36,911 nt of DNA, from positions 1 through 36,911 of the forward strand of contig CAZCNZ010000115.1 of assembly GCA_964500245.1 (NCBI GenBank), given 5' to 3'. The notes under the pieces were generated by a model. The model made no database searches. It was not told where the DNA came from and was given only the letters and a program-made list of their open reading frames with translations. Shown here in pieces: positions 2,624 to 14,797 of this stretch. Both the position numbers and the translations under genes were made by a program. The stretch's first letter is position 1. Each line of letters starts with the position of its first letter. The stretch comes from an uncultured Thermoplasmatales archaeon (lineage in GTDB: Archaea; Thermoplasmatota; Thermoplasmata; Lutacidiplasmatales; UBA184).

Positions 2624-3203
2624 GCCCACGCGGAAGTGTCCAGCCGTGGTCGGTCACAGTTCCTCTGCCTACGAAAGGGAACTCCGTAGACTCCTCGAGG
2701 GCGAGCCGAACGCCGTCCGGGAGTACGCTCGGGTGCTGCCGCCAACCCAACGCAAGGAGTTCGAGCGCATCATCGACACTCCGTTCCTCATCATCCGCGC
2801 CGCGGGATCCCTGGGATTCGACCTCGTCGCACTCCGACGAGAGTACCCGTTCCCGATCGAGGTGAAGGCCTCCTCCGAACCCGTCGTGCGGTTTTCGGCG
2901 GCGAGTGGGCGGGCGAACCAGCAGCTGGAAGCCCATCGAAAAGCGGTCGGCAGGGTCGGTCTCGCGGTCCTGTATGCCTACCGCCGGATTGGTCTTCGGG
3001 GCAGTGAAGTCTGGCGATTGTACTCCGCGGGAGACCCGCCGAAGAGCGGAATCCTCCGGCTCATCTTCCGGGAGCTTCCCCCGGTGGGTCAAACACCGGA
3101 GGGCAACGGCGTCCTCCGCTGGGAGGAGGGACTACCGCTCGCCCGATTCCTCAATAGGGCCCTGTTCCTGATGGAGCCGCCCGCGGAACCAGGGATCGGA
3201 TGA
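2622..3203 (+). CDS. hjc: Holliday-junction-resolvase (Hjc) family PD-(D/E)xK nuclease, atypically long
   Basis: Hjc-like motifs are YERELRRLLEG, IIRAAGSLGFDLVAL and FPIEVKAS (S-x3-D...E-V-K). There is a ~25-aa insert between the ERE helix and the RAAGS strand, plus a C-terminal extension. The true start may be GTG 2646, given the TATA geometry. The stop overlaps the thiolase start (ATGA at 3200). Confidence 0.7.
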   Translation: MPTRKCPAVVGHSSSAYERELRRLLEGEPNAVREYARVLPPTQRKEFERIIDTPFLIIRAAGSLGFDLVALRREYPFPIEVKASSEPVVRFSAASGRANQQLEAHRKAVGRVGLAVLYAYRRIGLRGSEVWRLYSAGDPPKSGILRLIFRELPPVGQTPEGNGVLRWEEGLPLARFLNRALFLMEPPAEPGIG

Positions 3204-4333
3204 CAGTTCACGTCGCGTCGGTCGGGATGGGCCGGTTTGGAAAGCGCTCGGAGGGTCTGATCGCCCTCGCCACCGAGGCCGCCAACCTGGCCCTCGAGGG
3301 CGTGGGCCGAAAGCCGATCGACCTGCTCGTGGTCGGCACGATGTTCTCCTCGGGGCCGTATGGCCGGGAGGCCATCCTCCCCCGGCTCGCGGGAGTCCTT
3401 GGCCTCGAGTCCGCGTCGGGGTTCCGAGTGGATTCCTCGAGCGGCACGGGGGGAATGGCGTTCCACGCGGCCGCGCTGGCGCTCGAGACGGGGGGTTTCG
3501 ACCGCGCCCTCGTGATCGGAGCGGAGAAGATGACCGACCGGTCGACGGCCGAGAACACCAAGGACCTCTCGGCGTCGCTCCACATGAGCGAGGTCGCCGC
3601 GGGGGCCACGATGCCGGGGCTCGCCGCGATCGTGGCCTCCCGCTACCTCCAGCGACATCACCTCACGAGCCACGTTTGTGACGTCTCGACCGTGCATGCC
3701 CGGGCGATGGCGGCCGCGAACCCGAACGCCCATTTCCAGAAGGCCGTCACTCTCGAAGAGGCGGCGACGAGCCGGCCGGTCGCGCTCCCGCTGCGGCTCC
3801 TTCATTGCTCGGCGATGTCGGACGGCGCCACCGCGGTCGTCCTCGAGAAGGGCAAGGGGCCCGCCACCGTGCTCGGTCTCGGTCAGGGGTTCGACGCCCT
3901 ACGGATCGTGGACCGGGAGGACCTCACGAGCTTCGCCGCGACGCGCGTCGCGGCGCGGCGGGCCTACGAAGCGGCGCACCTCACGCGGAAGGAGGTCAAC
4001 GTGATCGAGCTCCACGACGCATTCTCGCCGTTCTCGATGATCACCCTCGAGGACCTCGGGGTCTGCGGCCCGGGGGAGGCCCTCGGCTGGTTCGAGAAGG
4101 GATGGGTCGGCCTCAACGGCCGGCTACCGGTCAACCCGAGCGGCGGCGTGGTCGGTCGGGGCCACCCGGTGGCGGCCTCGGGCCTGGCCGAGATCGCCGA
4201 GGTCGCGCTCCAACTCCGGGGCGAGGCCGGCGCGCACTCGATCGGGAACCGACCGAAGGTCGGTCTCGCCCAGACGATCAGCGGGATCGGCTCGCACAAC
4301 TTCGTCACACTGCTCGGGAGGGAAGCCGCGTGA
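3200..4333 (+). CDS. Thiolase (archaeal acetyl-CoA acetyltransferase / SCP-x-type)
   Basis: Thiolase motifs are present: CSAMSDGATAVVL, NPSGG, GHPVAASGL. Length is 377 aa. It is followed by a DUF35 partner with a GTGA start/stop overlap. Confidence 0.85.
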   Translation: MTVHVASVGMGRFGKRSEGLIALATEAANLALEGVGRKPIDLLVVGTMFSSGPYGREAILPRLAGVLGLESASGFRVDSSSGTGGMAFHAAALALETGGFDRALVIGAEKMTDRSTAENTKDLSASLHMSEVAAGATMPGLAAIVASRYLQRHHLTSHVCDVSTVHARAMAAANPNAHFQKAVTLEEAATSRPVALPLRLLHCSAMSDGATAVVLEKGKGPATVLGLGQGFDALRIVDREDLTSFAATRVAARRAYEAAHLTRKEVNVIELHDAFSPFSMITLEDLGVCGPGEALGWFEKGWVGLNGRLPVNPSGGVVGRGHPVAASGLAEIAEVALQLRGEAGAHSIGNRPKVGLAQTISGIGSHNFVTLLGREAA

Positions 4334-4653
4334 CCACCGCCGGAGCCCTCGACCTCGCCCGATGTGAGTCGTGCCACACCCGATTCCTCCCGGCCGATGG
4401 GCCCTGCCCAAAGTGCGGGTCCACCCACTGCGTCCCGTACTCCTCGTCCGGTGTCGGAAAGGTCCTCGCCTCCACCGAACTCCTCTATCCGGCGGCAGGT
4501 TGGTCGGCCCCGCACCGGCTCGTGCTCGTCGAGCTCGCCGATGCGGTACGGGTTCTCGCGATCGTGGAGGGGTCACTTCCGGCCGCGGGAGCCGTCGTCG
4601 AGGTCCATCGCGACGGGGACGTCTATCGAGCTCGACCGGAACCTTCCGCGTAA
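4330..4653 (+). CDS. DUF35 family OB-fold / zinc-ribbon protein (thiolase partner)
   Basis: The GTG at 4330 overlaps the thiolase stop. A zinc ribbon CESCHTRFLPADGPCPKCGS is followed by an OB-like segment GVGKVLASTELLY...LVLVELADAVRVLAIVEG...VVEV. The upstream part of ORF 3805..4653 overlaps the thiolase gene in another reading frame and is not credible as coding. Confidence 0.8.
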   Translation: MTTAGALDLARCESCHTRFLPADGPCPKCGSTHCVPYSSSGVGKVLASTELLYPAAGWSAPHRLVLVELADAVRVLAIVEGSLPAAGAVVEVHRDGDVYRARPEPSA

Positions 4654-4656
4654 GGA

Positions 4657-4772
4657 CGCGGGGAGGGGGACGTCCCGAGGGGACGGTTTGCCCGACCCCC
4701 CTTTTGAACCCCCGAGGTGAAACCACCACTGGATTAGCAATCCAGCGCCTTACCGGGCTGGGCTATCCCCGC
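4657..4772 (-). tRNA. tRNA-Ser(GCU): tRNA-Ser (anticodon GCU) with a ~31-nt non-canonical intron in the T-loop
   Basis: On the minus strand the elements read: acceptor GCGGGGA, 3-bp D stem GCC/GGC, anticodon stem CTGGA/TCCAG with loop TTGCTAA, and long variable arm GGTG-GTTT-CACC. The T stem 5' half GGGGG and loop TTCAAA(A) are then followed by 31 nt (about 4671-4701). Only after that come CCCCC (T stem 3' half), TCCCCGC (a perfect 7-bp acceptor partner) and discriminator G. No contiguous T arm exists. Confidence 0.8.
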
Positions 4773-4798
4773 GCGAGGCGGTCGAGCCGCGTCCGCAC

Positions 4799-4804
4799 CT
4801 TAAA
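4799..4804 (-). promoter_or_regulatory. TATA-like box (TTTAAG on minus strand) upstream of tRNA-Ser
   Basis: An A/T hexamer lies 27 nt upstream of tRNA base 1 (4772) in otherwise GC-rich sequence. Confidence 0.5.
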
Positions 4805-4964
4805 CCTTCGGATACCGGGGAGTCTAGGGCCCAGTTCCGCTCATCCATGGCCGAACAGGAGATGCCGGAGTCAGGACCCGGTTCGCCGCCTCGGGCATTC
4901 TCTCTTCGGGCAGTTTCTCGGGAGGGTTATGTAGCGGCGCGGTGGTGCCGCGCCGGGAGAGGGT

Positions 4965-5930
4965 ATGCGGGTCGTCAAGGCCGGAGTCGTGGGCGCGGGC
5001 ACGATGGGAGCAGCGATCGCCGAGGTGCTCGCCCTCAACGGGATCGAAGTGGTGCTCAAGGACGTCGACGCGCCGCTCGTCGAGAAGGGCCTCGCTCGGG
5101 TCCGGGGGTTCGTCGACGAGCTGGTTCAGTTCCACGAGGGTCGTCCGGAGAAGGAGATCGACCGGATCAATGACCTGACCGGCGGCCTGACCGACGAACA
5201 GAAGACCAAGGTCCGGGCGAAGCTCGCGCCGAAGTTCACGCGCGCCCGTGGCGACGAGGTGGTGGCGCGGGTGCACGGAACGACCGAATATGGACCGTTC
5301 TCGGACGTCGACCTCGTCCTCGAGGCCGTGTTCGAAAAGGCCGAGGTGAAGCGGCCGGTGCTCGAGGCACTCGACACGGTGATCCCCGACCACGCGGTGA
5401 TCGGATCGAACACCTCTTCGCTCTCGATCACGCGGCTCGCCCGCGGGCTGAAGCACGTGCGGGAGACGCTCGTCGTGCACTTCTTCAACCCCTGCACGAC
5501 CCTGCCGCTTGTCGAGGTCTCCGGGGGCGTGGACACCCGAGAGGACGTCATCAGCGACACGATCGACTTCCTGCAGGGACTGCGCAACCACCGCTACCCG
5601 CTCGTCCCGATCCGGATCAAGGAGTCGCCTGCGTTCCTCGTGAACCGCCTCCTGATCCCGGTCCTCAACGAGGCATCGTTCGCCCTCGACGAAGGGGTCG
5701 CTTCCTCGCGCGACATCGACCTCGCGATGAAGACGGGCGCCGGCATGCCGATGGGGCCGTTCGAGCTCGCCGACATGATCGGACTCGACGTCTCGCTCGA
5801 GGTCGCCGAGACGTTGTTCCGGGAGTACGGGGACCCGAAGTATCGGCCCGCGCCATTGCTCGTGCGCCTGGTCGATGCAGGCCACCTCGGACGGAAGACC
5901 GGCAAGGGCTTCTACGACTACTCGACGTGA
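4965..5930 (+). CDS. 3-hydroxyacyl-CoA / 3-hydroxybutyryl-CoA dehydrogenase (NAD-binding)
   Basis: The N-terminal Rossmann motif is [31 protein letters not shown]. The family-typical core is SNTSSL...HFFNP, and the C-terminal domain carries GFYDY. Confidence 0.85.
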
Positions 5931-14724: not shown

Positions 14725-14797
14725 GCCGCCATAGCTCAGTCGGTAGAGCGGCTGATTTGTAATCAGCAGGTCGGGAGTTCAATCCTCTCTGGCGGCT
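14725..14797 (+). tRNA. tRNA-Thr(UGU): tRNA-Thr (anticodon UGU)
   Basis: A full cloverleaf is present: acceptor GCCGCCA/TGGCGGC, D arm GCTC-AGTCGGTA-GAGC, anticodon arm GCTGA-TTTGTAA-TCAGC, and T arm GGGAG-TTCAATC-CTCTC. There is no intron and no encoded CCA. Confidence 0.9.

Follow-up and report, generated by a model that had tools for sequence, protein, structure and literature searches.

A tRNA-Ser(GCU) gene interrupted at position 59/60 by a predicted bulge-helix-bulge intron in a Lutacidiplasmatales-like archaeon

The stretch analysed here, called the window below (36,911 nucleotides (nt) of contig CAZCNZ010000115.1, assembly GCA_964500245.1), holds a tRNA-Ser(GCU) gene on its minus strand at 4772..4657. 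Reading of the sequence gave a gene of 116 nt, including an intron of 32 nt in the T-loop. Position 1 of the tRNA is 4772, the discriminator G73 is 4657 and CCA is not encoded. Read along the minus strand, the 70-nt 5' exon (4703..4772) runs from the acceptor strand GCGGGGA through TA, the D arm (GCCC...GGC, 3-bp stem), a G, the anticodon arm CTGGA-TTGCTAA-TCCAG (anticodon GCT at 4738..4736), a T, the variable arm GGTG-GTTT-CACC and TC to the 5' strand of the T stem, GGGGG (4713..4709), and T-loop positions 54-59, TTCAAA (4708..4703). The intron, AGGGGGGTCGGGCAAACCGTCCCCTCGGGACG, follows at 4671..4702. The 14-nt 3' exon (4657..4670) consists of T60, the T stem strand CCCCC (4669..4665), the acceptor strand TCCCCGC (4664..4658) and the discriminator G (4657). 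The long variable arm (U-GGUG-GUUU-CACC-UC), the anticodon loop UUGCUAA and G73 are those of a class II tRNA-Ser. An original prediction made from the window had named such a gene at 4657-4772, and its coordinates proved exact.

The T and acceptor stems close only with the 32 nt at 4702..4671 taken out. After their removal in silico, ARAGORN called a tRNA-Ser(gct) of 84 bases, in which the acceptor stem (7 bp) and the T stem (5 bp) are both perfect, as the original prediction had foreseen. It had placed an intron of ~31 nt at about 4671-4701 and an 85-nt spliced product; removal of 31 nt leaves an 8-nt T-loop, and these sizes were corrected to 32 nt (4702..4671) and 84 nt. In the predicted spliced tRNA the 5' exon end, ...GGGGGTTCAAA, is joined directly to the 3' exon start, TCCCCCTCCCCGC.

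Comparison with orthologues places the intron between positions 59 and 60 of the tRNA. In intronless orthologues (L033, L035, L036; other Thermoplasmata families) the exons are the same and the T-loop reads TTCAAAT with no insert. Junction bases were counted in 116 distinct orthologous introns: the first intron base was G in 75, A in 32, C in 8 and T in 1, the T preceding CCCCC (U60) was invariant, and the two bases before U60 were unconstrained. The junction was therefore set at 59/60, from the TTCAAAT of the intronless orthologues, the variable first intron base together with the invariant T, and a bulge-helix-bulge (BHB) motif that is symmetric in that register only. A real intron with its junctions one base away (a 31-nt version, or junctions at 58/59 or 60/61) was considered improbable. 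The first intron base in the window is A, so that TTCAAA|A...G|T and TTCAAAA|...T|C both yield a 7-nt loop by sequence, and a BHB scan also listed a 31-nt register with three pairs. Against such a shift stand the TTCAAAT of the intronless orthologues, the constant mature T-loop that the 116 introns give with 59/60 alone, the 8-nt loop of the 31-nt versions, and the geometry, in which only 59/60 cuts after the second base of 3-nt bulges with the T stem abutting the 3' bulge. The original prediction had left 59/60 and 60/61 as equals; the first is retained and the second dropped.

A BHB could be drawn at these junctions, which had not been managed by eye before. It has 3-nt bulges on opposite strands, a helix of four positions between them and helices h and h' on either side, and is thus of the hBHBh' type. 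The outer helix h is the 5-bp T stem (4713..4709 with 4669..4665). In the central helix, U54 U55 C56 A57 (4705..4708) face GGGA of the intron (nt 27-30, 4673..4676) as U54:A, U55.G, C56:G and A57.G. The 5' splice-site bulge is A58 A59|A(i1) (4702..4704), with the probable cut between 4703 and 4702 as judged from BHB geometry and the orthologues, and the 3' splice-site bulge is C(i31) G(i32)|U60 (4670..4672), with the probable cut between 4671 and 4670. The inner helix h' is an intron hairpin (nt 2-26, 4677..4701) made of GGGGGG, U and CGG, the loop GCAAA, and CCG, U and CCCCUC; its 6+3 bp are stacked directly on the BHB and form part of the minimum free energy (MFE) structure from RNAfold. For the whole precursor RNAfold gave -63.5 kcal/mol (z = -3.6), with a 7x7 internal loop between T stem and hairpin. 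Canonical 37/38 introns are cut after the second base of each bulge. By this analogy, and from the symmetry of the motif, the cuts would fall after the second bulge base here as well. The T arm has the format of the anticodon arm (5-bp stem, 7-nt loop), so a 59/60 intron matches the canonical 37/38 intron exactly in its geometry.

Across the 116 introns the partner of U54 was A in 72 and G in 44, that of U55 A in 99 and G in 17, that of C56 G in all 116, and that of A57 G in 111, U in 4 and C in 1. Opposite an A57 the intron base is G rather than U in those 111 introns, as it is in all further A57 tRNAs looked at, and in G57 tRNAs it is C. At A57.G (window 4705 with 4676, intron nt 27) the purine-purine combination appears to be favoured over A:U beside the 5' bulge.

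DNA searches of 40 relatives recovered the full 118-nt query, intron included, from 23 of the 24 same-genus genomes at 83-97% identity. A pattern scan of a species-representative genome collection yielded at least 119 contigs with the interrupted gene. Among the matches listed, almost all were metagenome-assembled genomes (MAGs) named 'Thermoplasmata archaeon' from soil and peat, including UBA184, UBA61, AcS/SubAcS genomes and Ca. Lutacidiplasma silvani AcS3-62. Also among the matches listed to the Ser(GCU) pattern, with additional sequence behind TTCRAA, were contigs whose labels are Nitrososphaera, Nitrososphaeraceae and Thermoproteota (L059, L063, L090, L113, L143, L152); these did not fit the Thermoplasmata-specific parser. 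The organism is a Lutacidiplasmatales-like soil archaeon of the Thermoplasmata, and the G+C content of the window (64-69%) matches the value of ~69% given for Lutacidiplasmatales (PMC9287336).

A gap-free alignment of 71 distinct precursors (A1) was used for covariation. The 5' exon was near-invariant and the 3' exon invariant; the few variable exon positions include one compensatory U:A/A:U switch in the anticodon stem. Intron columns vary, and all nine pairs of hairpin h' change on both sides. Paired cells reached 95.1% on the named structure and 90.6% for the h' helix. None of 500 shuffles reached the observed values on any measure, and sliding the partners by 1-3 columns lowered pairing to 48-58%. 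The intron sequence thus varies while the junction structure is kept, as in a BHB intron. Intron size was 37 nt in one orthologue outside the genus (L032). In two AT-rich genomes of the same order (L030:1483-1512(-) and L031:1561-1588(+)), mini-introns of 13 and 11 nt, AATTTTTTGAAAA and AATTTTGAAAA, were seen at Ser(GCU) 59/60. They have no inner hairpin, their 3' part TGAA pairs perfectly with TTCA, and in length they sit at the reported minimum for introns of archaea.

The intact gene was called neither by ARAGORN nor by Rfam at the gathering threshold, each of which reported only a tRNA-Thr at 14725 in the window; that standard scans would pass it over had been anticipated in the original prediction. 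A permissive Rfam scan of 4550-4880 gave a tRNA match at 4713-4772 with 26.6 bits (gathering score 29) and the T arm deleted from the model, and one further, chance match at 12.5 bits. Rejection by standard scanners is also what a pseudo-tRNA would give, that is, a Ser(GCU) gene that 32 nt inserted into the T-loop had inactivated and that had since gone out of use. This explanation was judged very improbable. More than 110 species-level genomes retain the gene in its interrupted form, with exons that hardly vary and an insert that covaries and is structurally constrained, and seven further tRNA genes of this genome have the same layout. Each of five near-complete same-genus genomes has one Ser(GCU) anticodon arm, within the intron-bearing gene, so that loss of this gene would leave AGC/AGU serine codons without a cognate tRNA. 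No second copy was found in the present 59%-complete assembly, where the other matches are different serine tRNAs, and no second full-length match was obtained in any relative searched by DNA.

The promoter is conserved as well. A putative promoter, CCGAAGG followed by TTTAAGG (CCGAAGGTTTAAGG, 4798..4811, minus strand), combines an element like the B recognition element (BRE) with a TATA-like box, the TTAA of which lies at -31..-28 from the mature 5' end. In 115 distinct orthologous flanks, positions -31..-28 were 91-98% A/T in genomes of ~67% G+C, and CCGAA was conserved at about -39..-35.

The gene lies on the opposite strand in a 311-nt gap between a DUF35-like open reading frame (ORF; 4330-4653) and a 3-hydroxyacyl-CoA dehydrogenase gene (4965-5930). 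That the hairpin is retained, either as an expanded T-loop of the mature tRNA or as a terminator or other structure for the convergent DUF35-like gene, would fit its stability and GC-richness and the stop of that ORF at 4653, which leaves 3 nt to the 3' end of the tRNA. A like hairpin is nevertheless present at the same T-loop site in the seven other genes, on other contigs, and in 13 isoacceptors across the genus, U54-C56 pair with the 3' end of the intron in a conserved way that is particular to a BHB, and 32 extra nt in a T-loop would bar the D-loop/T-loop elbow of established tRNA structure, which together make retention scarcely credible. A self-splicing group I or II intron was rejected, since such introns have a catalytic RNA core of hundreds of nt with Rfam-detectable domains, the insert is too small (32 nt) and Rfam matched only the partial tRNA and the chance 12.5-bit hit; a mobile-element att site was rejected because there are no flanking repeats and the insert is kept in place across orthologues.

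The DUF35-like ORF, which resembles ChsH2 and converges on the tRNA, belongs to a cluster with a thiolase gene (3200-4333) and the 3-hydroxyacyl-CoA dehydrogenase gene. Two ORFs that cross the tRNA (4364-4720 and 4371-4934) are spurious.

Both splicing enzymes are encoded in the genome. EndA has the alpha'2 format, a single 354-aa ORF with two PF01974 + PF02778 repeats (G000:C106:2921-3721(-)), and was also found in 20 of 20 relatives searched. Its best solved relatives are the Methanopyrus kandleri EndA fusion (5X89) and the Archaeoglobus fulgidus enzyme (1R0V/2GJW). Aligned to the latter, it appears to have no insertion either adjoining the catalytic His, where the preceding segment falls short by 3 residues, or at the C-terminus. 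Judged in this way, none of the loops of broad-specificity enzymes (CSL/L1, ASL/L2 or L3) is apparent. EndA is also collinear with that of families f2, f3 and f4, which carry few or no such introns. A lineage-specific EndA insertion as the cause of broader specificity was looked for and rejected, none being found. RtcB is encoded at G000:C45 (477 bits).

The locus is very probably a functional tRNA-Ser(GCU) gene with a BHB-type intron at 59/60, which EndA would cut and RtcB would join to an 84-nt class II tRNA. Splicing is strongly implied; we infer transcription, cleavage at exactly 59/60 and ligation. The conserved TATA/BRE-like promoter would give a 116-nt precursor, whose T arm could not close over the 32-nt intron at 59/60. 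The arm would instead form the BHB, with the T stem outside, U54-A57 paired to the intron GGGA upstream of the 3' junction, and the hairpin inside. The two 3-nt bulges, A58 A59|i1 and i31 i32|U60, would be the cleavage sites of the alpha'2-type EndA, and RtcB would then join the exons into an 84-nt class II tRNA with the T-loop UUCAAAU. A T-loop interrupted by a non-canonical archaeal BHB intron had been put forward in the original prediction and is borne out by the hBHBh'-type motif, the archaeal host and the encoded EndA and RtcB.

Three points weigh against this account. Folding returned the T stem and the hairpin and left the central helix open in the MFE structure, with a cost of ~2 kcal/mol to enforce the BHB. 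The central helix has three standard pairs only, the fourth position being A57.G (111/116 introns), and is thus not textbook-strict. Enzymes of the alpha'2 and alpha4 types have been described as acting on strict BHB motifs at 37/38 (PMC4090602, PMC5829648). That an ordinary alpha'2 enzyme handles these T-loop introns is nonetheless plausible by analogy, since both flanking helices and both 3-nt bulges are kept and the homodimeric EndA of Ferroplasma, also of the Thermoplasmata, is reported to cleave minimal BHB substrates (PMC8707768).

The same arrangement was found elsewhere in the genome. Among ~29 tRNA genes of the 59%-complete assembly, eight are interrupted at 59/60 by an intron of 31-35 nt: Ser(GCU), Ser(CGA), Arg(UCU), Gly(UCC), Asn(GUU), Asp(GUC), Gln(CUG) and Leu(UAG). 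A scan for T-arm and acceptor complementarity and a covariance model agree on these. The scan gave 328 mostly false matches in a loose version and 30 matches, nearly all real tRNAs, in a stricter one (U8, A14, limited G.U pairs). For the covariance model, a first model (R1) of gap-free Ser(GCU) arms was used to align the eight paralogous arms (A6), from which the model was rebuilt (R2); alignments made with MAFFT between the T arms of unlike tRNAs (A2, A3) were out of register at the 3' end and were left unused. The other seven genes (L162:80-199(+), L163:79-185(-), L164:211-312(-), L165:82-185(+), L166:78-183(-), L167:251-357(-) and L167:76-223(-)) are on contigs C13, C15, C43, C53, C178 and C195, two of them adjacent on C195. 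About 28% of the tRNA genes are interrupted at 59/60 and roughly 45% overall; for the lineage, the share of tRNA genes with an intron at this site is about a quarter.

All eight T-loop-intron arms fold alike, as T stem, 7x7 loop and hairpin. In the Gly and Gln arms (G57) the perfect hBHBh' is itself the MFE structure. The G57 genes Gly, Gln and Asp have four standard central pairs, with an intron C opposite G57, and Asn has a C56.C mismatch. Recent copying of introns between genes found no support: the eight intron cores had a pairwise score of 0.07 against -1.83 (sd 0.63) for mononucleotide shuffles, with a best pair of 8, and the slight excess can be explained by the shared plan of a G-rich/C-rich hairpin, so there is no evidence of recent transposition in this genome.

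Before splicing, ARAGORN missed six of the eight genes (five of the seven besides Ser(GCU)) and mis-delimited or truncated the other two. Four of the eight scored under the gathering threshold of the Rfam tRNA model, which gave no match to the Leu(UAG) gene at all. After in-silico splicing ARAGORN recognised all seven of the genes run (Leu(UAG), which also has a D-region insert, was left out). The intron search of ARAGORN (-i) on the whole genome was dropped, having returned mostly false genes with introns of hundreds of nt. As a result, tRNA counts, statements on codon coverage and tRNA-based MAG quality grades will be understated for this soil order, and 'structured GC-rich spacers' between genes of the lineage can be unrecognised tRNAs.

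Inserts at other sites were also observed. Four genes have inserts of ~27-37 nt in the D-loop region, Arg(GCG) (L168:79-187(-)), Pro(UGG) (L169:73-181(-)), Met(CAU) (L170:79-181(+)) and Leu(UAG) (L167:76-223(-)), and in the best BHB register of each, one of the two flanking helices is missing (hBH- or HBh'-like). Published work has alpha'2 endonucleases processing relaxed motifs poorly, which bears on these inserts. Anticodon-loop inserts are present in Glu(UUC) and Trp(CCA). The Glu(UUC) gene (L171, G000:C21:1578-1677) has a perfect canonical BHB intron, and its spliced anticodon loop would be CCUUCGA, with a C at position 33. U is near-universal at this position in tRNAs.

Model R2 was run on 151 Thermoplasmata genomes that were at least 80% complete; having been trained on GC-rich hairpins, it gives counts that are lower bounds for AT-rich genomes and mini-introns. 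Each of the five near-complete relatives gave 9-14 matches. The best 30 matches of these relatives all parse as tRNAs, of 11 isoacceptors, which become 13 with Asn and Gly of the present genome. In the family of the window (f1), 17 of 17 genomes had a match, with 3-14 per genome (7-14 in the genus of the window). Matches were also found in 17/18 genomes of f6 (1-2 per genome), 5/5 of f27 (1-4), 4/4 of f24 (one each), 3/6 of f11 (1-2) and 5/19 of f17 (one each); none was found with R2 in f20 (0/14), f10 (0/8), f12 (0/4) or f2 (0/2). Outside f1, eight of ten matches checked parse as tRNAs. In other Thermoplasmata families, one-contig genomes among them, an Arg(UCU) gene has two introns, one in the anticodon loop and one of 21-22 nt in the T-loop at 59/60 (CGAA AC|T), and similar double-intron tRNAs were seen as well (L214, L215 and L216, closed or near-closed f6 genomes; also L217 and L220-L223). 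From the double-intron tRNAs it follows that T-loop introns are not confined to Lutacidiplasmatales.

The 59/60 introns of Lutacidiplasmatales may form a family gained repeatedly at one T-loop site, for example by reversal of EndA and RtcB on T arms that mimic the anticodon arm. The idea is tentative and we would sooner bet against it than for it; it derives from the spread over at least 13 isoacceptors, the constant site, a size that is always 30-35 nt, the shared hairpin plan and the ordinary-looking alpha'2 endonuclease. If true, the order would be a natural system for the study of archaeal tRNA intron gain and a counter-example to the rule that links intron diversity with endonuclease architecture. 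Selection could also act on the introns, for instance if they disrupt the targets of integrases in the 3' half of tRNAs.

The kind of element is already known. The review list of non-canonical tRNA intron sites includes 59/60 (PMC4090602), and BHB motifs have been acknowledged in T-loops (PMC6379350). The difference lies in the host. The lineage-wide abundance of T-loop introns in a euryarchaeal order with alpha'2 EndA is undescribed in the literature searched: no paper was found that deals with tRNA introns of Lutacidiplasmatales, and none that reports T-loop or other non-canonical introns from the tRNAs of Thermoplasmata or Methanomassiliicoccales.

Crenarchaeota, and Thermoproteales in particular (Marck & Grosjean 2003; Sugahara et al. 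2008; reviewed in PMC4090602), share with this genome introns outside 37/38, 59/60 included, many interrupted genes and BHB-dependent excision. Their EndA is an (alpha-beta)2 enzyme with a Crenarchaea-specific loop, and their motifs are often relaxed and spread over many positions, whereas the present host is euryarchaeal (Thermoplasmata) and has one dominant site and T-loop introns with both flanking helices. Thermoproteales also have transposed intron families, unlike this genome, in which no strong similarity between paralogous introns was found. A non-canonical site in a euryarchaeon is known from the pre-tRNA-Glu(UUC) of M. kandleri (Kaneta et al. 2018, PMC5829648), but there the intron is in the D-loop, the motif is relaxed (HBh') and the EndA is heterotetrameric. 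The alpha'2 enzyme of A. fulgidus removed that intron inefficiently (PMC5829648), by which the strictness of the motif matters for the introns described here.

The closest counterpart in position is ARMAN-2 (Ca. Micrarchaeum acidiphilum), whose pre-tRNA-Cys(GCA) has a 59/60 intron with an hBH motif (Fujishima et al. 2011, PMC3239211) and whose pre-tRNA-Pro(GGG) has introns at 53/54 and 59/60 with strict hBHBh' motifs (PMC3239211). The T-loop site, the protein-spliced BHB class and the failure of ordinary tRNA prediction to see the genes are common to both. ARMAN-2 differs in its three-unit epsilon2 EndA with a broad-specificity loop, where a two-domain alpha'2 enzyme is encoded here, and in the tRNAs concerned; in the present lineage each genome has 7-14 tRNAs interrupted at this site.

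In structure the nearest relatives are the canonical euryarchaeal 37/38 introns (tRNA-Trp; in this genome Glu(UUC) and Trp(CCA)). In both, a 5-bp stem is outermost, loop bases 1-4 pair with the intron, the cut follows base 6 of the loop and the 3' exon contributes the final one, and the same enzymes, EndA and RtcB, would act. The differences are the T arm in place of the anticodon arm, and the conserved A.G in the central helix wherever the T-loop has A57. According to the reviews, Euryarchaeota with alpha4 or alpha'2 EndA have fewer than 10% intron-bearing tRNA genes, all interrupted at 37/38 (PMC4090602), and only (alpha-beta)2 and epsilon2 enzymes, with their specific loops, remove non-canonical introns (PMC5829648). 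The abundance of 59/60 introns beside an alpha'2 EndA contradicts these generalisations (PMC4090602, PMC5829648). It fits the view that alpha'2 enzymes are limited by the strictness of the motif and not by its position, for which these introns, with their conserved A57.G, provide a testable case.

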